From the NCBI GenBank assembly GCA_964564415.1, contig CAZMAV010000009.1, positions 80,341 to 144,340 of the forward strand: 64,000 bases of DNA, given 5' to 3'. Made by a program: the position numbers and the translations under genes. Shown here piece by piece: positions 1,409 to 21,160 of this stretch (positions are counted from its first letter, which is position 1; each line of letters opens with the position of its first letter). Under the pieces are notes generated by a model, which worked only from the letters and a program-made list of their open reading frames with translations, was not told the DNA's origin and ran no database searches. The DNA is from an uncultured Bacteroidia bacterium (GTDB lineage: Bacteria > Bacteroidota > Bacteroidia > J057).

Positions 1409-1879
1409 GTCTTCACATATTCATCTGATCGAACGCAGTCAGATAAGTTGCTTGATTATCAATCGGTTACTATTGTTTTCCTGCCTCTTGGATCATAATC
1501 CCATATGTCCAAAACTGAATTTAGGACAATTGGACGGACCTCATCAGGCATGTTACTGCTGAAGAATGGGCCATAAGCATTGTTCTTCTGGGCTTGGGAA
1601 AGCTATGCGTAGATCCGCTTAGCTTGGACCGACAGAGCTTTGATCTGACGGTAGTGGGAGAGGTATGCAGGGGTGTGACATTTTGATGCTAATACATACA
1701 ACTATTAGGTCCTTCTCAGGATGTGGTCAACAGTAAAGTTCGACAAGAGAATGTCAGGCTGTGAAGGAAAAACTGAAGGCTGTTGGGCAGGCATCCAACA
1801 GGGGAGAAAATATTGTAATTCGTTCTTTTTCACATACTTGAGGGGTGTAGTAGCGATAAAGAAATTTATCGCTACGCCT

Positions 1880-1954
1880 GACTCGGAAGTCCTATGGTGG
1901 GACGCCACATTGTCTATGTGGTAGCAGCGGGTTCGATTCCCGTCCGGGTCGCCA
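1880..1954 (+). tRNA. tRNA-Asp (GTC), CCA encoded
   Basis: The cloverleaf folds by hand: acceptor gactcgg/ccgggtc (one G-U pair), D-stem gtcc/ggac, anticodon stem ccaca/tgtgg with loop ttGTCta, T-arm gcggg-ttcgatt-cccgt, then discriminator g and cca. An 11-bp perfect hairpin (1849-1875) lies immediately upstream. Confidence 0.85.
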
Positions 1955-2120
1955 GGATCAAGGCCTTTCCCCTAGCATGGCAAAATAAAGTGGGAAGCGA
2001 TTGAGCTTAGCTTAAAGCTTCACACCCGACAAAAGGAGCCATGACTTGACCGGAATATGGCAGGTATCCAGCCTTGGAAGTCCCAAGGTTATGAGCTTTG
2101 ACGTACGAATGATTTGGCAA

Positions 2121-2189
2121 AACGCCCTAGCTTAAAGGACTAAAAGCGGCCTTAGAGGGTAGATATGGGTTCGATTCCCATGGGCGTTC
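2121..2189 (+). tRNA. tRNA-like element with a perfect acceptor stem and T-arm but no canonical D and anticodon arms (possible pseudo-tRNA)
   Basis: Acceptor aacgccc/gggcgtt is 7 bp and the T-arm atggg-ttcgatt-cccat is perfect. The 5' 46 nt (ta gctt aaaggactaa aagc ggccttagagggtagat) cannot form a 5-bp anticodon stem with a 7-nt loop. Confidence 0.35.
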
Positions 2190-2222
2190 ACCGAGAAAGG
2201 CTTTGATGAGCCTCTCCTTCAC

Positions 2223-2293
2223 TGCCCGATAGCCTAGCGGCAAGGCACCACATTTTGGCTGTGGAGACCCAGGTTCGAATCCTGGTCGGGCAT
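2223..2293 (+). tRNA. tRNA-Gln (TTG)
   Basis: U1-A72 acceptor tgcccga/tcgggca, as is typical of Gln tRNAs. Anticodon stem ccaca/tgtgg with loop ttTTGgc. T-arm ccagg-ttcgaat-cctgg. Confidence 0.8.
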
Positions 2294-2299
2294 CTTTTC

Positions 2300-2370
2300 C
2301 TATCCGAAGCGCAATGGCGGCGCACAAGTCAGGGAGACTTGGGGTGTGGGTTCGATTCCTGCCGGATAGT
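2300..2370 (+). tRNA. tRNA-Pro (GGG)-like; anticodon loop cagggag carries an unusual A33
   Basis: C1-G72 acceptor ctatccg/cggatag, typical of Pro. D-arm gcgc-aatggcg-gcgc. Anticodon stem caagt/acttg with loop caGGGag. T-stem gtggg/cctgc has two G-U pairs. Confidence 0.55.
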
Positions 2371-2374
2371 CTCT

Positions 2375-2446
2375 GGAACTATAGCTTAGCAGGTAGAGCG
2401 TCTGACTGAAGATCAGAAGGGGGTGGTTCGATTCCACACGGTTCTA
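2375..2446 (+). tRNA. tRNA-Phe (GAA)-like with a non-pairing acceptor stem (possible pseudo-tRNA)
   Basis: Canonical D-arm ta-gctt-agcaggta-gagc. Anticodon stem tctga/tcaga with loop ctGAAga. T-arm gtgg-ttcgatt-ccac. The 5' end ggaacta is not complementary to the 3' end cggttct. Confidence 0.4.
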
Positions 2447-2456
2447 CATTTTTGAG

Positions 2457-2539
2457 GGAACGCGTCAACGAAGGAAGGTTGAACCTGTCTGTAAAACAGG
2501 TGCTTTGGGGCTTAGTAGGTTCGACTCCTGCTCCAGACT
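2457..2539 (+). tRNA. tRNA-Tyr (GTA)-like class II element with a non-pairing acceptor stem (possible pseudo-tRNA)
   Basis: D-stem caac/gttg. Anticodon stem cctgt/acagg with loop ctGTAaa. Long variable arm. T-arm gtagg-ttcgact-cctgc. The 3' acceptor tccagac has no complementary 5' partner; the nearest complement, agtct-ct-gga, lies at 2368-2377, inside the Phe-like element. Confidence 0.3.
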
Positions 2540-2612
2540 CCCGATTGTATTTGCAAAGACCCGGCAAACCCTCTTAAGGCCAGCCGGGTCCTCAAACTGA
2601 TTTCAAATGGGC

Positions 2613-3818
2613 TTACTCGTTGGGATTCATGATTTTACCTAAAAAAAGGATGGTATTAGACTCGAGGTCTCGAATCACGAGCAGGAAAGGACGATCCACC
2701 CGAAGGGTAGGAGGAACTGAGGTAAGGCCTACCTCTACAGAAGTAGCACCAGCAGCTTCCAGGCCTCCTTCTTCGATCTTCAAAAAAGTCTTGTGCTTAA
2801 CTCTTGAAATAAAAAGATTGGAGCTTTCAACTACTCCGCTTAGATCAGCCGCATTTTTACGGAAAGCCTTCACCATTCCCAAACTTTTCATGGTCTCCTT
2901 CAATTCTTTTTCATATTTGATCTCCATCTTAGGAAAGATGACTATAAGTTGGGTTTCGCCCTGAAGATCCTGGATGAGGCTATCGTAAAAATCAGTAGAA
3001 AGAGAGGGAATCAAGTCAGCAGGTCTCTTTTCCGATTTTGGCAAAATAATATCCATGGCAAATTCTGGTTCATCTTTGCCGATAAGCAAAGTAATGGCTT
3101 GAAAATCAGGACGGTCGAGATAGCGAAATTGTGAATCGTGAAACATCATGTCAACGTCTTCCTGGGTATTGGAATCCGGAAAAAATGTTCCTGAATGGGT
3201 ACTGTTTTCCAAAAAAGGCTGGTTCCAGGGTCCCTTGAAGTAAATGGTATTGACCAAAAACATCACGTCTTGAGAACTGATGTTGCTGATGATGTTCTTG
3301 ATGCGATCTTCCGTTTGATCGGCTACCCACTGATTGATTTTGTCCTTGGCGGAAGGGTTTTCAAAATCCAAGGCTTCTACCTTGCTCTGAAAATTATCCT
3401 CGGCTTGACCGATAAAATCACTTTTGGGATTCAGCTCCTGCCTATGGTAAATAGCATTGGCGATGCTTAGCTGCAGCTTGCCATCTGAACGGACAAGCTT
3501 AAGGAGTAGGTTTTTGTATTGCTCGTTGAGTTTTTCCTCATCAAGCCCAGAGAGATGGAGGGCTTCGTAGATTTCTTGTTTTGTTTCTCCTTCTGCTCCA
3601 TTGGAGGTCATGCTAATGGCAGAACCTATGCTCAAGGGTGAGATGAAGATATTTTTATCGGGTTCTTCAGAGTCCAGAACTTTGAGCATTTGAAAGCCCA
3701 TTTCATTGTTGGCCTGGCTGACGTCCTCAAAGGTGGAGGAGGCTACATCTACAGGCTCCTCACAGGAGAGAAGACCAAAGATCAAAATCAGGCTGCTCAG
3801 GTGGATGATGGTTTTCAT
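2613..3818 (-). CDS. Serpin (serine protease inhibitor) family lipoprotein
   Basis: 401 aa. Lipoprotein signal 'LIFGLLSC'. Serpin core motifs 'NTIYFKGPWNQPF' and 'FLVNTIYFKG'. Reactive-centre-loop hinge 'KIEEGGLEAAGATSVEV' followed by '...RVDRPFLLVIRD...ILFLGKIMNP'. Confidence 0.85.
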   Translation of the reverse strand: MKTIIHLSSLILIFGLLSCEEPVDVASSTFEDVSQANNEMGFQMLKVLDSEEPDKNIFISPLSIGSAISMTSNGAEGETKQEIYEALHLSGLDEEKLNEQYKNLLLKLVRSDGKLQLSIANAIYHRQELNPKSDFIGQAEDNFQSKVEALDFENPSAKDKINQWVADQTEDRIKNIISNISSQDVMFLVNTIYFKGPWNQPFLENSTHSGTFFPDSNTQEDVDMMFHDSQFRYLDRPDFQAITLLIGKDEPEFAMDIILPKSEKRPADLIPSLSTDFYDSLIQDLQGETQLIVIFPKMEIKYEKELKETMKSLGMVKAFRKNAADLSGVVESSNLFISRVKHKTFLKIEEGGLEAAGATSVEVGLTSVPPTLRVDRPFLLVIRDLESNTILFLGKIMNPNE

Positions 3819-3961
3819 AAGGGTTTGGATTTTGTATTAAATTACTATCTAGAATTTAAAATTCAAATTCCTTCTTCTTCAGGCGAAAAAGCCGGAAATA
3901 ATCCTGCCTTTTTTTCTCTTTATCTCCAAATAAGGGTAACACAGCATGTTTCCAGAAAACG

Positions 3962-4046
3962 GGAAGGATGGCAGAATGGTAGTGCAACTGTTTCGAAAAC
4001 AGGAGTTGTCCTCCGGGACATGGGGGTTCGAATCTCTCTCCTTCCT
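3962..4046 (+). tRNA. tRNA-Ser (CGA), class II with long variable arm
   Basis: Acceptor ggaagga/tccttcc. Anticodon loop ttCGAaa. Variable arm agttgtcc-tccg-ggacat. T-arm ggggg-ttcgaat-ctctc. Confidence 0.75.
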
Positions 4047-4063
4047 CCTGTTCAAAGATCAAT

Positions 4064-4138
4064 GTACAAGTAGCTCAATGGCAGAGCACCTGGCTGTTAA
4101 CCAGGGGGTTGAAGGTTCGAGTCCTTCCTTGTGCGCCA
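4064..4138 (+). tRNA. tRNA-Asn (GTT), CCA encoded
   Basis: Acceptor gtacaag/cttgtgc. D-arm gctc-aatggca-gagc. Anticodon stem cctgg/ccagg with loop ctGTTaa. T-arm gaagg-ttcgagt-ccttc, then g and cca. Confidence 0.85.
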
Positions 4139-4212
4139 CAGGAAAAGGCCAAATATAAAGGAGGTAATCCAGCAACATCCAAGGCCGGCAGGAAGGTCCT
4201 GCCCCTGTGACG

Positions 4213-4300
4213 GGAAGTGTTAGCCGAATGGCAAGGCACCCGATTACTAATCGGGAAACCCGTACAAGCGGGTCTGTGGGTTCGAGTCCCATCGCTTCCG
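4213..4300 (+). tRNA. Class II tRNA with predicted anticodon ACT (a Ser-AGU reader with A34), unusual
   Basis: Acceptor ggaagtg/cgcttcc. Anticodon hairpin cccga-ttACTaa-tcggg. Long variable arm with stem cccg/cggg. T-arm gtggg-ttcgagt-cccat. Confidence 0.5.
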
Positions 4301-4321
4301 CAAACTCCTAACATTGGCAGC

Positions 4322-4395
4322 ACCCGGACGGCGCAATCGGCAGACGCATCAGGCTTAAACCCTGTTCGAGTGCGGGTTCGACTCCGCTCCGGGTA
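4322..4395 (+). tRNA. tRNA-Leu (TAA)-like but only 74 nt: the class II variable arm is missing and the T-stem is one base short (possible pseudo-tRNA or indel)
   Basis: The arm-by-arm architecture parallels the canonical bacterial tRNA-Leu(TAA) structure: acccgga .. gcg-caatcggcaga-cgc .. tcagg-ctTAAac-cctgt .. gcggg-ttcgact-ccgc .. tccgggt. The variable region is only 6 nt, and the T-stem 3' strand is ccgc where cccgc is expected. Confidence 0.4.
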
Positions 4396-4458
4396 CTTTT
4401 TATCCCAAAAGCGGGTGATAGGCCTACTTTTTCTTGACGCAAACTTGCCGTCTTTCAT

Positions 4459-4531
4459 GGTGGCCGTAGGGCAATGGTAGCGCATCGGATTGTGGCTCCG
4501 AAGGCAGGGGTTCGATTCCCTTCGGCTCACC
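4459..4531 (+). tRNA. tRNA-His (GTG) with G-1 and a one-nucleotide bulge in the 3' acceptor strand
   Basis: G-1 followed by gtggccg. Anticodon stem tcgga/tccga with loop ttGTGgc. T-arm agggg-ttcgatt-ccctt. The 3' end reads cggcTcacc, where cggccacc would pair perfectly with the 5' strand and C73. Confidence 0.7.
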
Positions 4532-4710
4532 CTCCTGAATCCCTAAAACTCCAGCAAAATGAAACGCGTAATTACCTACATCATCTCTGTGATGATCCAT
4601 AACAGAGCCATGAGGCATGGATGGCGAAAAACTCCCCCAGACCCTCCTCTTTCCAATGGGGAATCCCCTTTGACCGCCAACCTTCCCCCAGGAAGATCGT
4701 TTAGCTGTTT

Positions 4711-5091
4711 ATGAATGAAAGAGACCAAGCCCTACTTGAAATGAGGCCTCGACTCTCCCTCGACAACAGCAAGGCCGGGGAGGCAGAAAGTTTCCAAAAT
4801 AATACCCTTCGTCCCATCCTTAAATTACAAAATCCCCTGCTCAAAATCATGGTAAGGGGGTGGCTTGACGCCCACAAACAAGACCTGACCCAGCAGGATG
4901 GCAAAGAGGCAAAAAAACTGATCGAACACATCCTCAAGACCAACAAAGGACTGAGAGCCACCCTTTTTGCTATGGTGGTGGGACTGATGACGGAGGAAGA
5001 AGTGGAGGAATACCTTCAGCACAAAAGAGAAATGAATCGAAGGTTGACCACCATGCTCATTCAGCGACTTCAGGATCAACTGATGTTGTAA
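4711..5091 (+). CDS. Hypothetical protein
   Basis: 126-aa ORF with an ATG start and no recognisable motif. It sits in the region of gene remnants. Confidence 0.35.
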   Translation: MNERDQALLEMRPRLSLDNSKAGEAESFQNNTLRPILKLQNPLLKIMVRGWLDAHKQDLTQQDGKEAKKLIEHILKTNKGLRATLFAMVVGLMTEEEVEEYLQHKREMNRRLTTMLIQRLQDQLML

Positions 5092-5279
5092 ATATTCCTA
5101 TTTGTCAACAGGAGTAGATCATCCGTCTGTTACCTGGAATTGACCCCTGATCAGCGAATCCTAACAGCCTGCCACACTTATATCGGAAAGTGAAGTTTTA
5201 TCGTTCATATTTATGTTTAGGAAAACGCCTGTGGCAAGGCTAATCCTAGGATTATCAACCCCAATAATTCAGTACATTC

Positions 5280-5465
5280 ATGGTTAGAGTACAATTTAAG
5301 CCGATTGCCCCTCAACTTGAGAGAGATATTCTGGACCTCCTGACCTACAAAGGCAAAATCGCAGCCATGAAGCGCTACATCGAGATTACGGGCGCCCGCG
5401 TCCACGATGCCAAGATCGCTGTAGACCGCATGAGCAGAAACATTGAACCCGGCCAGGCCCTCTAA
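5280..5465 (+). CDS. Small protein with weak resemblance to the ribosomal L7/L12 C-terminal domain fold
   Basis: 61 aa. 'KGKIAAMKRYIEITGARVHDAKIAVDRM' resembles the L7/L12 C-terminal domain 'KIAVIKAVR..TGLGLKEAKDLVD'. Confidence 0.3.
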   Translation: MVRVQFKPIAPQLERDILDLLTYKGKIAAMKRYIEITGARVHDAKIAVDRMSRNIEPGQAL

Positions 5466-6115
5466 GGAAGATAAATCGAAGGATTTCTCTTCCCTGAGCC
5501 TCCTTTTCCTCTATTACGTAAATGCACCCTGAGTTTTTGCTGAGATCAAGCCTGGCCTTTCTATCCGTGAAGGTAGCCAATGGTCGGTAAGCCTTACCCC
5601 TAACGTCTGGCAGTTTCATCTCCCTCATCATTTGGTCTTTCTCCTGCCATTCCTAAATCAATATTTTTCCATTTACCCTCAGTAGATGCCCCTTCCAAAA
5701 AGGGATGGAGACCTGCGTGTTTGGGTTTAGGTCATTTTCTGCCCAGGCAAAATAGATGACCTGAATTTCTCCCTGTTTCCCAACTTCATGGGTAAAATAG
5801 CCTTTCATCCATTTTTTACATCAAAGCAAATTTTCATTTGACTCTATGCGAAAACATGTCTTGATCACTCTGAAAGTAGCCGACCGCCAAAAAGCCGTCG
5901 GTGATGCTGCGAATCCCACCTAGGAGGAAGGTTTACAGGCTTCCTGCCCATTTTTCCCCAATACCAGCCTGTACGGTAAAATCAGAGAATCATGGCAAAT
6001 CGTCAAAACCGAAGGGCCTGTTTTCAGCAAGATCAATACCAGGAAGAGCTGTTTCGCCGTTTGCTGAGGGAGGGTAAAGCGAGGTTTTTAGTTCAAAAAG
6101 AAGAAAAAGCATCTG

Positions 6116-6622
6116 TTGCGAATGGGTTTTGATGAAGGAAATGCCCTCCGGGAAGCCCTTGCAGCTATGCAACACGAAGCTTACGACAAAAAAGGCAGAG
6201 AGGCCAAACTCGAAATTTTGCAGGCTCTGCTTCGACAGCCCCAAAATTTCATCAAGCACGAGATTTTGAGTGAGGCAGCCCTCATGCCGGACGCCCGCCA
6301 GGGCTACGGACTTCCCATCGGGGGGGTCCTGGCTACGGAAAAATCCGTCATCCCCTACGCTGTGGGAGTAGACATTGGCTGTCGAATGGCCCTCTCGGTC
6401 TTCGATTTCAAAGCTGATTTTTTGGAGCGTCAGAAGCGTGAACTGCTGGACCCCCTTCGTGTGCACACCTTCTTTGGTGCTGGAAAAGGGCCTGACCAAC
6501 CCATGGAAGACGAGGCCCCCATCGCATACAAGGACATTTGGGAAGTCATGGCTCAGCAGGAGGATCTGGTAGACATTGTAGGTAAGTTTTCTCCAAAAAT
6601 CGTAAGGATGGCTGGCGATTGA
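6116..6622 (+). pseudogene. rtcB: rtcB remnant: the RtcB N-terminal segment joined in frame to the RtcB C-terminal tail, with the central catalytic region (~240 aa) missing
   Basis: 'LMPDARQGYGLPIGGVLATEKSVIPYAVGVDIGCRM' resembles the conserved RtcB N-terminal region (recalled consensus 'VMPDVHLGKGSTIGSVIPTKGAIIPAAVGVDIGCGM'). The C-terminus 'EDEAPIAYKDIWEVMAQQEDLVDIVGKF' resembles the RtcB C-terminal tail (recalled consensus 'IDEIPMAYKDIDAVMAAQSDLVEVIYTL'). The total is only 168 aa, whereas full-length RtcB proteins are about 400 aa. Confidence 0.6.
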
Positions 6623-6830
6623 TGTCGGCACTGAGAAGGAAACTTATCTCAAGTTAATTTTTTGTTAAGAAATAAAACGAAAACCGAATTAGGCTGAATT
6701 TGCTCTATGTGAATCCGGCCTTTCTTTTTGTAGTCAGGTTAAAAGGCCTCTTTAAATCTTGTCATGGTCGCTTGGATATGTTTTCATTCTTCAGTTTGTA
6801 TATCTTTGCAGGGGAAAAATATACGACCTC

Positions 6831-7148
6831 ATGAGATTATTCGTTTTGTGTGTCTTTTTTATTCCTATCTGGCTGGCAGCTCAAGAGCCTTCCAAAGGGG
6901 AAGCCCACACTGAGGATAACATCATTGCCTATATTCCAAGTGAAAAAGTCCTCTTTGGAAGCTGTGTGGTCAAGTCCCTGCGGGCAGACAAGGGCAACAC
7001 CACCCATGCCAACCTCTTCATGTGGCCCGAAACCGTCAAAAAAGTGAGAAAGAAATACAAGATCGCCGAAATCGTCATCCCCGGCCACGGACAGCCCGGC
7101 GGATTGGAACTGCTCGACTATACCATTCGCCTGTTTTCGAAGCGCTGA
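6831..7148 (+). pseudogene. Subclass B1 metallo-beta-lactamase remnant: a signal-peptide-like N-terminus joined to the C-terminal third; the HxHxD zinc-binding region is absent
   Basis: 'KGEAHTEDNIIAYIPSEKVLFGSCVVKS...ANLFMWPETVKKVRKKYKIAEIVIPGHGQPGGLELLDYTIRL' resembles the conserved C-terminal third of subclass B1 metallo-beta-lactamases (recalled BcII- and IMP-1-type consensus 'GHTEDNIVVWLP...ILVGGCLVK...VVPGHGEVGD'). It is preceded directly by 'MRLFVLCVFFIPIWLAAQEP'. The whole ORF is only 105 aa. Confidence 0.6.
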
Positions 7149-7247
7149 GCAGTTTTTCCCTTTTTATTCTAAAAATTGGATATGATGTATTTTACATCAT
7201 CTGGGTTGAATGCCTATATTTATCCACCTAAATGAGAGGTCCTCCCC

Positions 7248-9149
7248 ATGGACCTCAATCTAACCTATGCTACTATGACAAAACTATTCAAGGGTCGTTT
7301 CCAAGGCCATAAGCTGGCTATCTTCCTTTTGGGAACGATGTTGCTGCCTCTTTTCGCCTCTGCCCAACTCGATCGGGTGGAGCCTCCCCACTGGTGGGTA
7401 GGGATGAACAACAGCCAGCTGCAGTTGCTGGTCAAGGGTGAAGGTATTTCCACCTACATCCCCAGGGTGAAAGGAGAAGGACTAAGCATCAGAAAGGCTA
7501 CACCCGGCGACAGCCCCAACTACTTGTTTATCGACCTGGATACCCGTGATGCTGAGCCTGGTACTTATCTTTTTTCCCTGCAAAAAAGCGGTGCCGAAGA
7601 TGTGGAGTTTGAATACGAACTCAAAGAAAGGGAAATGGAAGCGGAGGAATTTGTGGGCTTTAACTCTTCAGACGTCATTTACCTGATCACGCCAGATAGG
7701 TTCGCCAATGGAGATCCCAGCAATGACAAGAGCGACGGAATGAGGGAGACAAAGGTCAACCGCGACAAGGACTACTCCCGCCACGGAGGAGACATAAAGG
7801 GTATCATGGACCATCTGGAATATCTGGAAAATATGGGCTTTACCGCCGTATGGTCCAATCCCCTTCTGGAAAACGACATGCCAAAGCAATCATATCACGG
7901 ATATGCGATCACCGATTATTACAAGGTCGATCCCCGCTTTGGTACCAATGAAACCTATATTCAACTGGCTGAAATGATGAGGGACCGAGGCATGAAACTC
8001 GTTTTTGACGGTGTGGTCAATCATTGTGGAGCCGAACACTGGTGGATGGAGGACATGCCCTTCAATGATTGGGTAAATTATCCCAAAACCAAGACCAATA
8101 CCAACCACCGCAGGACGGTGAATCAGGATCCCTATGCCGCTGATATTGACAAAGAGCAAATGAACCAGGGCTGGTTTGTCAGTGCTATGCCCGACCTCAA
8201 TCAGCGCAATTCTTTTATGGCCACCTATTTGATTCAAAACAGCATTTGGTGGATAGAGACATTAAAATTGGGAGGGATACGCCAGGATACCTATCCCTAT
8301 CCGGACAAGGATTTTCTTTCGGAGTGGACCTGTCGCATCATGGACGAATACCCCAATTTCAGCATGGTCGGTGAGGAGTGGACCACCAACCCCCTGCTGG
8401 TTTCTTATTGGCAGGAAGGAAGCGGACTGGCGGACGGCTATCGTTCCTGTCTGAGTTCTACCATGGATTTTCCCATGCAAACCAACCTGAAGCAAGCCTT
8501 GACAGAAGAAGAAGGCTGGGAAAGTGGCCTGGTCAAGCTTTATGAAGGCCTGGCCAACGATTTTGCCTATGCTGAGCCCATGGATCTCATGGTTTTTGCC
8601 GATAACCACGACATGGATCGCATCCATACCCAAATGGGAAAAGATCCTGCCCTCACCAAAATGGCCATGGCCTACATCTTGACTGTCAGAGGCATACCCC
8701 AGGTTTATTACGGAACGGAGATTCTAATGGAAAATTCAGAAAAGCCCGGCGATCACGGCCTGATTCGGACGGACTTTCCCGGAGGATGGTCAGGAGATCA
8801 AACCAATGCCTTCGAAGAGGTCGGGCTGAAGGAAGAAGAGCAGGATATGCAGCAGTATATGCAGCGCATCCTGGAATGGAGAAAGGAAAATGAGGTCATT
8901 CATCGGGGCAGGACCAAGCATTTTGCCCCTCAGGATGGGATGTATGTCTATTTCCGCTACCTGGGTGAGGAAATGGTCATGGTAGTTCTCAACAAAAATG
9001 AGGAGGCAGTCGAATTCAGCCTTCAGCGATTCAGTGAAATCTTGCCGGAAGGTAGGGTAGGTCGCGACATCCAAACAGATCAGAGCTACAACCTTGAAGA
9101 ATCGATTGCCGTCCCCGGAAAAACAGCCATAATCCTAGATGTAGAATAA
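7248..9149 (+). CDS. Glycoside hydrolase family 13 (alpha-amylase / neopullulanase-like), secreted
   Basis: 633 aa. Signal peptide. 'DVIYLITPDRFANGDPSNDK', 'GGDIKGIMDHLEYLENMGFTAVWSNPL', 'YHGYAITDYYKVDPRFGT', 'KLVFDGVVNHCG' and 'DGIRQDTYPY' are GH13 conserved regions. Confidence 0.85.
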   Translation: MDLNLTYATMTKLFKGRFQGHKLAIFLLGTMLLPLFASAQLDRVEPPHWWVGMNNSQLQLLVKGEGISTYIPRVKGEGLSIRKATPGDSPNYLFIDLDTRDAEPGTYLFSLQKSGAEDVEFEYELKEREMEAEEFVGFNSSDVIYLITPDRFANGDPSNDKSDGMRETKVNRDKDYSRHGGDIKGIMDHLEYLENMGFTAVWSNPLLENDMPKQSYHGYAITDYYKVDPRFGTNETYIQLAEMMRDRGMKLVFDGVVNHCGAEHWWMEDMPFNDWVNYPKTKTNTNHRRTVNQDPYAADIDKEQMNQGWFVSAMPDLNQRNSFMATYLIQNSIWWIETLKLGGIRQDTYPYPDKDFLSEWTCRIMDEYPNFSMVGEEWTTNPLLVSYWQEGSGLADGYRSCLSSTMDFPMQTNLKQALTEEEGWESGLVKLYEGLANDFAYAEPMDLMVFADNHDMDRIHTQMGKDPALTKMAMAYILTVRGIPQVYYGTEILMENSEKPGDHGLIRTDFPGGWSGDQTNAFEEVGLKEEEQDMQQYMQRILEWRKENEVIHRGRTKHFAPQDGMYVYFRYLGEEMVMVVLNKNEEAVEFSLQRFSEILPEGRVGRDIQTDQSYNLEESIAVPGKTAIILDVE

Positions 9150-9224
9150 AAAAGTAGCCCGACGGGAAGAAACTGTCGGGCTTCATACCTTACCTAATCA
9201 TCATAAATTCCCAACGGCTAAATA

Positions 9225-11180
9225 TTACTCTTTAACAACGGGGGAAGATGTCAACATGTTCCCTTGGCTGATGCTCAGTATGTAGTAACCTCCACTTAAG
9301 GAATTTAAATCTAGTGGAATTTTATTTGAAATCAACACTTCAAATCGGGTTTCATACACTATTTGCCCCTCAAGGTTCCTTATTGCTACCTGAACCGGCT
9401 CATGACCCCTAAAGTTGTGGAGCATGACTTCTACCTTTCCACGGCTTGGATTAGGATAAACGTCTACATCTAGCGGGGTGTTGCCTCCTTCTGAAAATAG
9501 TTCGATCGTGTGGCTGTAAGAATAGCTCCCATCCCGGTCGATTTGAAGGAGGCGATAGCTTAACTTGGAAGAGCGAGGCGGGATGTGGTCCATAAACTCA
9601 TAATTGCTAACCTGCGAAGAGTAGCCCTGGGCCTCCTTGCTTCCAATTACCTCCCAGCTTTCGCCATCAGTGCTTCTTTCTATGCTAAAGGATTGGCTGT
9701 TGCGCTCCGAAGCAGTAGCCCAGGTCAGCCTTATGCCGGATTCCTCTCTTTTACCTTCAAAACTGAGCCATTCCACCGGAAAAGAAGGCTGGCTTTCGAA
9801 GGCTCCCAAATCCACCGTGTTACCCTGTACACGGGTATTTCCAGAGGGATCCTGTGGGTTGATTCCCGGGGCACTGGCTGTTCCGGCATCTATGGCGGGA
9901 GAACCGCTAGCGGGTGCATAGTTGTCATCTAAGGTACAGGTAATGTTGTCAGGCCCGGCAGCCTGGAAAAGGTTTGGGTCTGCATCCATATTTTGACCTG
10001 CATCGCTGACCGTAGCCTGCCAATTGGGACCACTTCCATTGCTGCCTTGAAGGATGCTGTAGGCGATCTCCATGTTCGAGACTTGATTGGTCTTATAGAC
10101 TTGAGAACTCAGGTGGGTTTCTCCGTTTTGGTCGTTGTTGGACCAAAAGATAGAATTATAGAGGTTGATGTTTGAAGACTGGGTCATGTAGAATCCCCCA
10201 TAATTGCGGCTGGCCCGATTGGAGTAGCAAGTGGAGTTTGTAAAATTGCAGGAAGAAAAATTAAGGGCGTAAAGTCCTCCCCCGTCCTGGTCTGATTCAT
10301 TGAAGGTCAAGGAAGTATTGACCATCGTAACTCCTGAAAAGCTGGAGGCATACATTCCGCCGCCTTGAAGGCTGGCGCGGTTTCCACATAGGACCACCCC
10401 TTCCACGTTAAGGTTGGACAGGGAATTGGCGTAAATTCCCCCGCCCCTTTGGCCTATGTTGTTGTAGGCAAATAAGTTTGAAAGCGTAAGAGAGCTCAGG
10501 CTTTGAAGATAATATCCTCCTCCGTCTCCCAACGCTTCATTGTCAAAGGCATAGATATTGGAAAATTCTCCCAGTGAGATACTAGACACGTGTAATCCCC
10601 CGCCCTTGCCGATCACATAGTTGTCTTTGATAATGAGATTTTTGAGGGTTACGTTGCTCATGCCGCTAATCTTAAGCCCTCCTCCGTCTCTATTGCTGTT
10701 GCTGTCTCCGTATCCATTTTGAATGGTAAAACCGTCCAGGTAGGTAGAAGGTCCATTTCCCAAGAAGATGACCTCCCATACATTATCCGTGGGATCTCCC
10801 GCTGTCCCTATATCTCCGTCCAGCAGTGTCGAGTTGTTTTGCCAATTCCGCTGCCCCAGGTTGCTTTCGGTACCGGCAAAACCTCCAAAGATGTGTACAG
10901 GTTTGGGACAAAAGAATTTCCAGTCCCTGGAGTTGCCCTGTCCGGGCTGGCCGTAGGCCCTTCGATCCGGATAGTAGGTGCCGGCCTTGACCCAAAGGGT
11001 ATCATTGCCGCTCCAAGAACTTGTTTCCAGGGCATCCTGTAGATTCGTATAAGCATCAGTCCAGGAACTCCCGTCATTATTGCCACTCGCATCCTGCGCC
11101 ACATAAATGAGGCGGGCAAAGGAGAAATTCAGAAGTAAAAGAATAAAACTTGTGGTAAGAATTTTTTTCATGTTTGACAC
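9225..11180 (-). CDS. Secreted right-handed beta-helix repeat protein with a T9SS C-terminal sorting domain
   Basis: 651 aa. Signal peptide. Repeated 'GGGLHVSS / GGGYYLQS / GGGIYANS / GGGMYASS / GGGLYALN' beta-helix turns. The C-terminal ~80 aa ('VYPNPSRGKVEV...GGYYILSISQGNMLTSSPVVKE') matches a Por/T9SS sorting domain. Confidence 0.7.
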   Translation of the reverse strand: MSNMKKILTTSFILLLLNFSFARLIYVAQDASGNNDGSSWTDAYTNLQDALETSSWSGNDTLWVKAGTYYPDRRAYGQPGQGNSRDWKFFCPKPVHIFGGFAGTESNLGQRNWQNNSTLLDGDIGTAGDPTDNVWEVIFLGNGPSTYLDGFTIQNGYGDSNSNRDGGGLKISGMSNVTLKNLIIKDNYVIGKGGGLHVSSISLGEFSNIYAFDNEALGDGGGYYLQSLSSLTLSNLFAYNNIGQRGGGIYANSLSNLNVEGVVLCGNRASLQGGGMYASSFSGVTMVNTSLTFNESDQDGGGLYALNFSSCNFTNSTCYSNRASRNYGGFYMTQSSNINLYNSIFWSNNDQNGETHLSSQVYKTNQVSNMEIAYSILQGSNGSGPNWQATVSDAGQNMDADPNLFQAAGPDNITCTLDDNYAPASGSPAIDAGTASAPGINPQDPSGNTRVQGNTVDLGAFESQPSFPVEWLSFEGKREESGIRLTWATASERNSQSFSIERSTDGESWEVIGSKEAQGYSSQVSNYEFMDHIPPRSSKLSYRLLQIDRDGSYSYSHTIELFSEGGNTPLDVDVYPNPSRGKVEVMLHNFRGHEPVQVAIRNLEGQIVYETRFEVLISNKIPLDLNSLSGGYYILSISQGNMLTSSPVVKE

Positions 11181-11446
11181 TGTATCTGATTGTTCAATTG
11201 TTAGTCTAAGCTACATGTTATATTTATTTAAAAATTGTATTATTCTCCGAGTGTAGTAAAATACAGGTCCACCGGTTGACATTTTGCGATAAATGGAATT
11301 TCGGTAGTATGCCTTCCTGGCCCGATAAGGGCAAGGATTCTGAAATTATGCCAGGGACAGACCCTGGAGGTGATACACTTACTGGAAATTAGGAAGAAAG
11401 AAAATACTAGATTTTTCCTGTTTCATGTCTATTTGTAGAAGACAGA

Positions 11447-18237: not shown

Positions 18238-18860
18238 TTCATTCGTGACAAGCTTAATTCAAAGTGATATTTTTTCCATTCCCAAAAGCTTTAGATCGAT
18301 CAGGAATCGGCTGTGCTATTTTTATTCGGGGAAGTCTTTAATCTTCCCGGTTTTATTTGGGGAATGTCGTGGGAGGCAAGTTTAAGGTAATCTGTAAATT
18401 ATCTTTTTGTAAAATTTCTTACATTTTTTGATAAAAGTTTAGGTAAAAAGGTCTGATCTTTCAATAATATTGATTATGTTAGAATAAAACTGAAACAAGT
18501 CTTTCGACTGATTGTGAAAAGCGTAGGTATTCATGTGATTGATCATGAATATGGAAAGAGAAAAAGATAAGAAGCTCGAGTGTTACACACACCTGAGCAT
18601 GGGATGGAGAAGGGAGTCTGAGTATCCTGTTGATCTCCATGTGCTGCATTTTCACTGTTTCGAGGTTTGGGGTAGACGTAATAGGGAACGCGATTGAAGC
18701 CTGCAAATGAGAGTTTGTCAGGCTATAGCAGTCTTCTTTTCAGGGATTTGACAACTGAAGATGAGAAACTTACGTATATTCCACTCCCTAAAGTTTGAAT
18801 GCTTTGAAAAGTGTACTTATCAAGCTTTTTTTCGTCAGAATGAAATAAACGATCTCGCAA

Positions 18861-19067
18861 ATGGAAGTATTAACTAGAATCACCCTGAATCCTGAAGTTT
18901 GCAACGGCAGACCCTCCATTCGCAACCAGAAGATGACCGTAAGCCTGTTATTGGAACTCCTCGCAGAAGGCCATACCCCTGATCAGATCATGAATGACTT
19001 TCCCTTTTTGGAGAAAGAGGATTTTCAAGCTTGCCTCAGATATGCGGCTCGTCTGACCAACTTCTAG
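18861..19067 (+). CDS. DUF433 domain protein (antitoxin-like), orphan
   Basis: 68 aa. 'PEVCNGRPSIRNQKMTVSLLLELLAEGHTPDQIMNDFPFLEKEDFQACLRYA' matches DUF433. No DUF5615 or PIN partner is visible. Confidence 0.6.
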   Translation: MEVLTRITLNPEVCNGRPSIRNQKMTVSLLLELLAEGHTPDQIMNDFPFLEKEDFQACLRYAARLTNF

Positions 19068-19321
19068 CTCTCATTTTTCATACTTATTGAATTGAAGGTC
19101 CATTGTGGCCTTCCTTTTGCCTGCTTAACAATTATTTTATCCAGGTCGGGACAACCTCCCCATGATCCCACCGTATTAAAACTTCCTCTCAAGTATATTT
19201 CTCGATCAGGGATGGTGAAAGTCCGCCGAAGAGAACTTCTCTTTCTCCCGCTCCCCTCATGCAAACACGGTTTGGTGTTATACACACTGCCGTATCCCTA
19301 CAGCTGTAACCAAACTTTACC

Positions 19322-21160
19322 ATGGGTTCATCCATACGCACGCTATTCAACCTATTGGGTAAGTACAAATATTGGTATTTATCCTCGGCATTATTGCTGA
19401 TCCTCTCGATCCTCTTTCGGAGCTTCGAGCCCAAGATTCTTCAGATCGCTATTGATCAGGTCATTGCCCTCATCGCTCCTGAGGTGCAAGCCGATCCCGG
19501 CGATATAGATCTCGTCGCCAGGGCCTTGCTTCAGGTATTGCCCGAGATCAAAATGGAAAACTTTGGCCTTTTGCTCAGTCTTTTGGCTATTATGTATGTG
19601 TTGACCTCCATTTTGAGGGGCGGCCTGCTTTTCGCCTCCAATGCTATCAATGCATGGTCGGCCGAGCATTTGACCAAAAATGTCAGGAACCGCCTTTTTG
19701 CCCACATCCAACACCTGCCTTTGAATTATTTTACCACCATTACCCGTGGGGAACTCATTCAGCGGAGCACAGGTGATGTAGACACGGTGAAAAATTTCAT
19801 CAAAGGGCAGGTCATTGCCTTGATTCGCATCCTGGCCATCTTTGGTTTTGCCTTTGCCCTTATTGCCATGATGAGCTGGCAGTACGCCCTCATCTGCATG
19901 AGTGTGGCCCCCTTCATGGTGATCACTTCCTATTTTTTCTTTAAAAAAGAGAAGAAAGTCTGGAGGGAGCACGAAAAAGAACAGGACCTTCTCAACAACA
20001 TGGTGCAGGAAAACCTCAACGGAATAAGGACCGTGATTGCCTATGCCAATGAGGAGCATGAGCAAAGCAGGTTTGAAGAGCAAAACCGCAAAAAGCGGGA
20101 AATAGGCCTTCGCCACAACAGGTTGCATATGTCTTTCTGGCCTTTTTCTGATTTCCTGGGCTTTCTGCAGGTATCGGTTTCTATTATCGCAGGAGGATAC
20201 TTTACGATGATAGGGAGCATCACTATTGGGCAGCTCCTGGCTTCTTATACCTACATCGGGATGGTTGCCTGGCCTTTGCGCAACCTGGGCAGGGTGCTCT
20301 CTGAAATGGGCATGGCTCAGGTAGCCCTTGAAAGACTTTCGGAAATCCTGAATGCAAAAGCCGAGGTAGACACCGGGATCACTCCTGAAAAGGTAAAGGG
20401 TAGCATACGCTTTGAGGGGGTAACCTTTGGCTATAAGAATGACGACATCTATGCATTACAAAATGTCAGTTTCGAGATAAAATCCGGAGAAAAGGTGGCC
20501 ATCGTCGGTCCTACGGGCGCGGGCAAGTCTAGCCTGATCAAGCTTCTGCTTCGCCTTTACGAACCCAATGAGGGACAGATTTTGCTGGATGGGAAGCCAT
20601 TGTCTACTTATAAGTGCTCTTACTTGAGGAAAAGGATCGGCATGGCCCATCAGAAGCCTTTTCTTTTTTCTACGAGTATCCGCAATAATATTGCCTACGG
20701 AAAACCACGGAGTCCCCTTGAAAAAATCCTGAAAGCTGCCAAGATCGCTCAGTTTTCAGAGATCAATGGGGTCTTTCCTGAGGGATATGAGACCCTGGTG
20801 GGTGAAAAAGGAGTAACCCTCTCCGGAGGGCAAAAGCAGCGGGTAGCGCTGGCCCGGACCCTCTTGCCAGAGCCGGATGTCCTGATCCTTGACGACATTA
20901 CCTCTGCGGTAGATACCGACACGGAGCAGGCCATGTTTGATGCGCTCAAGGATGAAATGCGGTCCAGGACCACCCTTATTCTTTCTCATAGGATAACCTC
21001 TATCCAGCAGGCCGATAAGGTCCTGGTATTTGACAATGGAAAATTGGTACAGGAGGGAAGTCCCACGGAACTGGAGAAGCAGGAGGGCTACTATCGGGAG
21101 ATTCATGAAATACAGTCTGCTGTAGAAGAGCAAATCCTCGAAGATACCCGCAAGGACTGA
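19322..21160 (+). CDS. ABC exporter, fused permease and ATPase (MsbA-like), subunit 1
   Basis: 612 aa. Six TM helices then a nucleotide-binding domain: Walker A 'GPTGAGKSS', signature 'LSGGQKQRVALAR', Walker B 'ILILDD'. Confidence 0.85.
   Translation: MGSSIRTLFNLLGKYKYWYLSSALLLILSILFRSFEPKILQIAIDQVIALIAPEVQADPGDIDLVARALLQVLPEIKMENFGLLLSLLAIMYVLTSILRGGLLFASNAINAWSAEHLTKNVRNRLFAHIQHLPLNYFTTITRGELIQRSTGDVDTVKNFIKGQVIALIRILAIFGFAFALIAMMSWQYALICMSVAPFMVITSYFFFKKEKKVWREHEKEQDLLNNMVQENLNGIRTVIAYANEEHEQSRFEEQNRKKREIGLRHNRLHMSFWPFSDFLGFLQVSVSIIAGGYFTMIGSITIGQLLASYTYIGMVAWPLRNLGRVLSEMGMAQVALERLSEILNAKAEVDTGITPEKVKGSIRFEGVTFGYKNDDIYALQNVSFEIKSGEKVAIVGPTGAGKSSLIKLLLRLYEPNEGQILLDGKPLSTYKCSYLRKRIGMAHQKPFLFSTSIRNNIAYGKPRSPLEKILKAAKIAQFSEINGVFPEGYETLVGEKGVTLSGGQKQRVALARTLLPEPDVLILDDITSAVDTDTEQAMFDALKDEMRSRTTLILSHRITSIQQADKVLVFDNGKLVQEGSPTELEKQEGYYREIHEIQSAVEEQILEDTRKD

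Follow-up and report, generated by a model that had tools for sequence, protein, structure and literature searches.

Two short open reading frames in the 64-kb window, that is, in the whole stretch of DNA that was analysed, are true fragments of larger genes, the first of an rtcB (ORF1) and the second of a subclass B1 metallo-beta-lactamase (MBL) gene (ORF2), and the matches that identify them lie far above chance. Very probably they are recent pseudogene remnants, one of them chimeric, that were left behind when a series of RecA-independent deletions between short direct repeats removed most of a dispensable genomic island. The process is one of ordinary gene decay, and it involves no new mechanism, system or kind of small gene. 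The features on which the argument turns are the following:

2456 to 2541, plus strand: hybrid tRNA remnant, the 5' part of a tRNA-Tyr joined to the 3' end of a tRNA-Cys by deletion 5
5992 to 6132, plus strand: ORF of 46 aa, left over from the N-terminal part of the first PcfJ-family gene (PcfJ1)
6116 to 6622, plus strand: rtcB remnant (ORF1), recognised from profile, structure-chain and homologue alignments
6623 to 6830, plus strand: retained intergenic region between the rtcB and DUF4440 genes, recognised from its alignment with the related contigs L003 and L004
6831 to 7148, plus strand: chimeric ORF2, in which codons 1-25 of a DUF4440 signal peptide (6831-6905) are in frame with a B1 MBL tail (6897-7148)

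ORF1 opens with a TTG codon and encodes 168 aa; the public annotation starts instead at the ATG at 6122 and gives a product of 166 aa (P0001). ORF2 encodes 105 aa. The 46-aa ORF just upstream is homologous to PcfJ1 over its first 39 codons, beyond which it continues into rtcB sequence in a different frame; residues 16-39 of PcfJ1 match positions 6037-6108 at 96% identity (tblastn). The rtcB remnant is now situated downstream of this PcfJ N-terminal ORF, which uses another frame.

The intact form of the locus was found in a 12.4-kb contig of the JGI metagenome 3300023202 (L003, the contig that encodes the protein P0124), which is about 93-96% identical to the locus in the window. The gene order of this contig is serpin, tRNAs, a 126-aa ORF, a 61-aa ORF, two PcfJ genes, HNH, GNAT, RtcB (468 aa), DUF4440 (142 aa), B1 MBL (248 aa) and amylase. 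The same order, with some extra genes, is found in two more distant genomes, GCA_039817415.1 (RtcB 81% identical) and GCA_022760475.1 (76%), and from this synteny we conclude that the long form is ancestral. An origin of the long allele by insertion is contradicted by the full-length domains of the intact genes. Full-sized RtcB homologues of about 466-470 aa are common, with about 8000 of them across the Bacteroidota. The intact allele is present in four samples, none of which is one of the two sequencing runs that carry the short allele. The relatives too have undergone independent and stepwise losses within the island; the sulfotransferase and CCP_MauG genes carried by L090 and L092 are missing from L003, and the serpin gene of L093 has suffered an independent, frameshifting deletion of 32 nt.

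A blastn comparison of the window with L003 yields five collinear blocks of 93-96% identity:

window 2515-6108 with L003 290-3887
window 6095-6282 with L003 7641-7828
window 6275-6518 with L003 7980-8223
window 6509-6905 with L003 8928-9323
window 6897-9112 with L003 10206-12421

These blocks define deletions 1 to 4. A fifth deletion, within the tRNA array, is visible in the comparison with L093 and L094. The five junctions, in terms of window coordinates, are:

6101 to 6108, plus strand: deletion 1, 3767 bp (not a multiple of three), at the microhomology AAGAAAAA, 8 nt exact
6275 to 6282, plus strand: deletion 2, 159 bp or 53 codons, at GCAGC(n)CT, 5 nt exact
6509 to 6518, plus strand: deletion 3, 714 bp or 238 codons comprising the RtcB catalytic core, at GACGAGG(n)CC, 7 nt exact
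6897 to 6905, plus strand: deletion 4, 891 bp or 297 codons, at GGGGA(A/G)GCC, 5 nt exact
2515 to 2529, plus strand: deletion 5, 278 bp of the tRNA array, at the repeat GTAGGTTCGA.TCCT, 10 nt exact

Deletion 1 eliminated most of PcfJ1, the whole of PcfJ2, the HNH and GNAT genes and the first two codons of rtcB, and deletion 4 took away residues 26-142 of DUF4440, residues 1-165 of the MBL and the spacer between the two genes. At all five junctions a direct repeat flanks the missing segment on either side in the intact allele, and the window has retained only one of the two copies. The repeats are 5-10 nt long when an exact match is demanded and 8-15 nt when one mismatch is allowed; in a simulation, less than 1% of random deletions of the same sizes had a microhomology of at least 5 nt. 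None of the deleted segments could be detected elsewhere in the 64-kb window by blastn or tblastn, and translocation of the missing DNA within it was rejected on these grounds.

Such junctions are familiar in bacteria. Albertini et al. 1982 are said to have described them for spontaneous lacI deletions between short direct repeats, Bzymek and Lovett 2001 reportedly attributed deletions of this kind to replication slippage, and Mira, Ochman and Moran 2001 reportedly drew attention to the deletional bias of bacterial genomes. The deletions reported here share with the usual short-repeat deletions the retention of one copy of a 5-10 nt repeat, the typical sizes (159 bp to 3.8 kb) and the non-essential, accessory nature of the genes that were lost. 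They differ from them in that there are five events in 9 kb, three of which have left open, in-frame ORFs and one of which has created a chimera between two genes.

The history of the locus would then have been as follows. The ancestor would have carried, in order, the serpin gene and a long tRNA array, two small ORFs, two PcfJ genes, HNH, GNAT, RtcB, DUF4440, B1 MBL and amylase, an accessory island that the window lineage presumably no longer needed; a relative at about 94% identity still has this arrangement, and genus-level relatives have it with additional genes. Replication slippage or illegitimate recombination between direct repeats of 5-10 nt would have mediated all of the losses. The 3767-bp deletion would have taken the segment from PcfJ to GNAT along with the start of rtcB; those of 159 and 714 bp, an N-terminal segment of rtcB and its catalytic core; the 891-bp deletion would have put the signal peptide of DUF4440 in front of the C-terminus of the MBL; and the 278-bp deletion, between tRNA T-arms, would have cost three tRNAs. 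Once the first deletion had inactivated the island, the later ones would have been neutral and only to be expected.

The nature of ORF1 is clear from its alignments. Against the Pfam RtcB profile (PF01139) it matches positions 11-83 of 426, with a weak second stretch, far from the whole profile; the L003 orthologue covers positions 1-423 of 426 at 275.7 bits. When aligned to solved RtcB structures, ORF1 residues ~49-118 correspond to the N-terminal block and residues 130-147 to the C-terminal tail (chain positions ~443-466). What it retains is the Bacteroidota-type N-terminal extension, the MPDxHxGYG...VGVDIGCRM block and this tail. Relative to the intact L003 orthologue, the missing core amounts to 238 codons (residues ~196-433 of 468) and a second in-frame loss to 53 codons (RtcB residues ~63-115), and the true start and first two codons of the gene are gone. 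An alignment with eight homologues established that the segments GGGNHFVE, SHSGSRG, ENHHNFAW and SASHGAGR are all absent; VGVDIGCRM is unchanged, and the His of MPDAHQGYG, the same in all of the aligned homologues, has become Arg (MPDARQGYG).

RtcB binds two Mn ions by means of one Asp, one Cys and three His ligands, and ligation requires a covalent His-GMP intermediate. The GNHF, SHSGSR, NHHN and SxHGAGR segments presumably supply, as in the published RtcB structures, the other metal ligands as well as the His that becomes guanylylated. From the Mn ligand set ORF1 has retained only the Asp/Cys pair of VGVDIGCRM. Since every core His motif is missing, including the one with the guanylylated His, ORF1 is not expected to be active. 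With respect to the RtcB family as known from E. coli and Pyrococcus horikoshii (PF01139), its N-terminal Asp/Cys block and its C-terminal tail are clearly homologous; however, without GNHF, SHSGSR, NHHN and SxHGAGR, and with Arg for the His of MPDxHxGYG, it is a fragment and no active member of the family.

ORF2 has a more complex origin. Its last 83 residues are the B1 MBL portion, 96% identical to the orthologue, and over its first 25 residues it agrees at 92% identity with the beginning of P0124, the 142-aa DUF4440 protein; the leader MRLFVLCVFFIPIWLAAQEPSKGEA comes from the DUF4440 gene upstream, whereas the MBL of L003 has a leader of its own, MINLMKTSLSTILPLFMALSMVAQ. ORF2 is an inter-gene DUF4440::MBL chimera, joined at a Gly-Glu-Ala coding repeat that the two genes have in common. 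The retained intergenic region contains the motif TATCTTTG (of the TAnnTTTG type), which is conserved in the alignment with L003 and L004 and lies about 23 nt upstream of the ORF2 ATG; judged from the known Bacteroidota -7 consensus, it is putatively promoter-like. With the DUF4440 upstream region, including TATCTTTG and the ATG, still in place, ORF2 may continue to be transcribed and its product exported.

Subclass B1 enzymes bind Zn1 through His116, His118 and His196 and Zn2 through Asp120, Cys221 and His263. The tail of ORF2 aligns strongly with this subclass; the closest solved chain, PDB 9c3d_A, is matched at residues 142-224, and the equivalents of His196, Cys221 and His263 are present in GEAHT, FGSC and PGHG, with the Gly preceding the Cys221 equivalent changed to Ser. 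In contrast to true members of the subclass, ORF2 lacks HxHxD and the N-terminal half of the alpha-beta/beta-alpha sandwich and bears a foreign leader, and its score against NCBIfam NF033088 (subclass B1 MBL; positions 136-216 of 217, 109.7 bits) falls short of the 200-bit cutoff; the L003 MBL exceeds that cutoff (238.9 bits, positions 3-216 of 217). The orthologue's zinc motif, HFHDD, falls within the 891 bp that were deleted, and it is intact in P0122, an MBL that a protein search with ORF2 recovered at 96% identity. ORF2 is not expected to be active, because His116, His118, Asp120 and half of the fold are missing. The appropriate annotation for both ORFs is that of pseudogene fragments, and screens for resistance genes should leave out ORF2, which is a chimera and no beta-lactamase.

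The first-pass annotation had presented the two ORFs as mini-genes that keep both termini and lack a catalytic core. Its coordinates are correct; the omission of about 240 aa from the rtcB core agrees well with the 238 codons missing relative to the intact orthologue, and the HxHxD zinc site is indeed gone from ORF2. The idea that only N- and C-termini are covered holds roughly for rtcB, where the loss of the start and the second deletion of 53 codons had escaped notice. It does not hold for the MBL, whose apparent N-terminus is the foreign DUF4440 leader. Its broader proposal of deletion-driven decay beside a tRNA island is borne out by the five microhomology-flanked deletions; the alignment to the orthologous locus that it recommended, in search of breakpoints and microhomology, gave exact repeats of 5-10 nt at all of the junctions, and the link that it had drawn from the rtcB remnant to the tRNA array proved sound.

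This link is best appreciated in the relatives. In the L092 island PcfJ, HNH, GNAT, sulfotransferase and RtcB genes come after an array of 22 tRNA genes, and the island of the window has nine tRNA genes, no HNH and a mere fragment of rtcB; L093 has 12 tRNA genes. In the relatives the tRNA array and rtcB belong to one conserved island, which is eroding in the window lineage. Deletion 5 joins the T-arms of tRNA-Tyr and tRNA-Cys (GTAGGTTCGAnTCCT) at the cost of three tRNAs; tRNA-Leu(tag) has disappeared, as has most of tRNA-Cys. Neither ARAGORN nor Rfam calls a tRNA in the resulting hybrid at 2456-2541. In one of the tRNAs that the window has kept, the anticodon GCT has become ACT, and the T-stem of another has lost 1 nt.

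Long tRNA arrays (L-arrays) occur in the Bacteroidetes, HNH and rtcB are among their linked or co-regulated genes, and insertions and deletions in them are frequent (PMC8421152). The relatives studied here likewise pair an array of 12-22 tRNA genes with HNH and RtcB genes. The present island differs from the L-arrays of that report (PMC8421152) in that it also contains PcfJ-family, GNAT and sulfotransferase genes, that a serpin gene lies inside the array on the opposite strand, and that in the window the array is down to nine tRNA genes and rtcB and HNH are destroyed or gone. No relevant literature was found on RtcB together with PcfJ. The biological value of the finding is modest, and consists in a clear before-and-after picture of the erosion of a presumably accessory tRNA-array/RtcB island in close uncultured Bacteroidota.

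Some indication of the age of these events comes from the substitutions. Relative to L003, the counts of synonymous and nonsynonymous differences (sd/nd) are 17/7 for the RtcB remnants (dN/dS ~0.11), 10/3 for the MBL tail (dN/dS 0.08) and 67/12 for the flanking amylase (dN/dS 0.04). Such low dN/dS values imply that most of the divergence took place under purifying selection, and hence that the deletions are young compared with the split of the two lineages. When the amino-acid differences are polarised with outgroups, the window branch has the derived state in most of them, and several fall at invariant or near-invariant positions; besides the Arg in MPDARQGYG, RIGF has become RMGF, the RtcB remnant shows replacements of Gly by Ser, of His by Pro and of Arg by Trp, and in the MBL tail FGGCMV has become FGSCVV. 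The counts are small, and the pattern indicates a probable relaxation of constraint following inactivation, as would be expected of recent pseudogenes.

Whether the four clustered deletions occurred one after the other is a separate question. No intermediate allele, with a subset of the deletions, was present among the five lineages or samples examined, only two close lineages having been found, and a search of genome contigs for such alleles returned only relatives at no more than 60% identity; as no intermediate was found, the serial history can only be called probable. It is conceivable, if unlikely, that all four arose in one complex event in which a stalled nascent strand switched template forward four times, primed at each switch by a few microhomologous bases, in a manner analogous to FoSTeS/MMBIR. 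An event of this type would have retained three short blocks of ~166, 226 and 378 bp. The four junctions do fit into ~800 bp of window sequence, equivalent to 6.3 kb in the ancestor, are collinear and in the same orientation, and are all microhomologous, and the retained blocks are similarly diverged from one another; together with the missing intermediates, these are the points in its favor. However, with just one deleted and one intact lineage at close range the absence of intermediates has little weight. Moreover, independent small deletions are common here, as shown by deletion 5, which lies apart in the tRNA array at a distance of 3.6 kb, and by the 32-nt deletion in the L093 serpin gene, and distant relatives have lost genes in a stepwise manner, as the sulfotransferase and CCP_MauG genes missing from L003 attest. 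The clustered, collinear, microhomologous junctions within a few kb do resemble those of eukaryotic template switching, but inversions, duplications and templated insertions are all lacking, and serial deletions fit the data equally well or better. A broader combination, in which a single multi-jump event of the FoSTeS/MMBIR type occurred in a prokaryote and/or the in-frame products are expressed and retained for function, we consider quite unlikely.

The second part of that combination rests on the open reading frames, and we infer that it is chance, of a biased sort, which kept them open. Three of the four deletions at the cluster are multiples of three, and all three intragenic ones are in frame. 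Selection for the reading frame was considered, given that three in-frame outcomes out of three (1/27 by chance) first looked suspicious, but the outcome is largely what one would expect from the phase bias of short repeats. Inside the CDSs of this genome and of L003, direct repeats occur in the same codon phase in 52% of cases for a length of 5 nt, 56% for 6 nt, 62% for 7 nt, 68% for 8 nt and 75% for 9 nt, values far higher than the one third expected. At the junctions themselves the repeats code for identical residues on both sides (Asp-Glu at deletion 3, Gly-Glu-Ala at deletion 4, and Ala-Ala-Leu). The in-frame outcome is therefore a consequence of the fact that short coding repeats are mostly phase-matched, and not of any selection for the products. 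When short repeats mediate deletions in coding DNA, open, in-frame mini-genes are to be expected as a by-product, a point that is useful in the judgment of similar finds.

The same reasoning applies to core-deleted RtcBs elsewhere. Six other RtcB proteins with in-frame core deletions exist in the public data (P0006, P0007, P0021, P0256, P0290 and P0307), with boundaries that vary from one to another; P0006 and P0007, which are closely related, have deletions that are incompatible with each other, and the first 103 residues of P0006 are missing as well. A convergent deletion with the same boundaries in P0006 was considered and rejected, since the boundaries are ~6 residues off on each side and those of the other examples are further off still; the resemblance to P0006 arises from the fact that the query is itself built from just those two pieces. 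The sporadic occurrence of such ORFs is explained by the same repeat phase bias. The existence of a small RtcB-like family, of which ORF1 would be a full-length member, was likewise rejected. Word-indexed and exhaustive searches gave no end-to-end homologue other than the query, and among 1.84 billion representatives the exhaustive search matched the ORF1 protein end to end with itself only, as the first-pass reading of an internally deleted gene had implied.

It could nevertheless be imagined that the mini-proteins are kept for a function, the RtcB fragment by binding RtcB partners or RNA ends in the role of a regulator or a decoy, and the chimera as a secreted peptide. The two ORFs are open, three deletions are in frame, ORF2 retains a promoter-like motif, a start and a signal peptide, and further in-frame core-deleted RtcBs are on record. 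If the products are indeed retained, these other RtcBs would hint at a recurrent and tolerated 'RtcB shell' protein. We find this highly improbable, as the phase bias already predicts the in-frame outcome, the other mini-RtcBs are sporadic singletons with different boundaries that form no family, the window branch is altered at invariant residues, and the rtcB remnant has lost both its own start and the genes upstream.

Serial decay by short-repeat deletion also presupposes that the sequence is real, and the assemblies bear this out. The Logan assemblies of SRR7048221 (L001) and SRR7048223 (L096), adjacent accessions that may share a study or a DNA source, match the window at 100% identity throughout the region, and the 181-kb NCBI contig encodes the same proteins. 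That the short forms are an artefact of assembly or library (collapse, chimeric reads or template switching) in an organism with intact genes, a suspicion to which the first-pass annotation had given voice as a systematic assembly collapse, and to which the microhomology of in-vitro template-switch chimeras and the origin of the sequence in a metagenome-assembled genome, judged at the assembly level, lend some color, is scarcely credible given the identical sequence in both runs and at NCBI, the junction repeats of 5-10 nt, which are far below the assembler k-mer and too short for the collapse of a de Bruijn graph, and the lineage-specific changes at invariant residues, as in real pseudogenes. 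No intact-allele proteins are on record from either run. The other genes of the window are full length, among them purH, mreB, PBP2, rodA, comEC and ABC transporters; in a Pfam scan of 20 other ORFs, 17 had matches that covered essentially the full profiles of their main domains and three belonged to no family, and the coding density elsewhere in the window is normal.

The tRNA array differs in size among the lineages, falling from 22 tRNA genes in the distant, 76%-level relative L092 to 12 in both L093 and L094, two relatives without the window's 278-bp deletion in the array, and to nine in the window. In every lineage compared (these four), a serpin gene of 401 aa lies in the middle of the array on the opposite strand. 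The serpin gene of L093 (about 4640-5630) carries an internal deletion of 32 nt, equivalent to about positions 582-613 of the closely related metagenome contig L003, which cuts its product to 329 aa in an allele that is elsewhere 99.5% identical.

The loci discussed here are as follows.

tRNA array: window 1880-4532; L092 38-4242; L093 3444-6342
PcfJ-HNH-GNAT-RtcB gene string: L003 3771-9041; L090 (a second distant relative) 1419-11407; L092 5408-11407
altered tRNA-Ser and tRNA-Leu(taa): window 4213-4301 and 4322-4396
small ORFs of 126 aa and 61 aa: window 4711-5091 and 5280-5465
core-deleted RtcB loci on public contigs: L005-L009

Genus-level relatives share a string of genes 3' of the array: two to four PcfJ-family genes, a small HNH nuclease, a GNAT gene, in some cases a sulfotransferase, and RtcB. 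Beyond the reported linkage of HNH and rtcB to long tRNA arrays (PMC8421152), our literature search found no paper on the PcfJ/GNAT combination. Between the array and the PcfJ genes are two small ORFs that are kept in all the relatives, as far as L092, and have no Pfam matches.

Among the individual tRNAs, the tRNA-Ser of the window has the anticodon ACT versus GCT in three relatives, and the T-stem of its tRNA-Leu(taa) is one base shorter than that of L093; both changes look like decay of array tRNAs. The tRNA-Pro(ggg) at 2300-2371, called by ARAGORN, scores below the gathering threshold of the Rfam tRNA model, and its L093 copy is identical.

Within the coding sequences of the window and L003, 52-75% of direct repeats of 5-9 nt share the same codon phase. 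Since direct repeats in coding DNA mostly do so, microhomology deletions often keep reading frames open, and this bias offers a general reason for the open ORFs that such deletions leave behind.

In-frame loss of the RtcB catalytic core is also seen in ORFs from several unrelated public contigs (P0006, P0007, P0021, P0256, P0290 and P0307). The P0006 sequence is identical across five samples. Although it is closely related to P0007, the two have different deletion boundaries that are mutually incompatible.

Further along, L092 has a DJ-1/PfpI gene between a Por_Secre_tail protein and an alpha/beta hydrolase (interval 18794-19525), where the window has only 266 bp (11181-11446); this could be a further loss, or a gain in L092.
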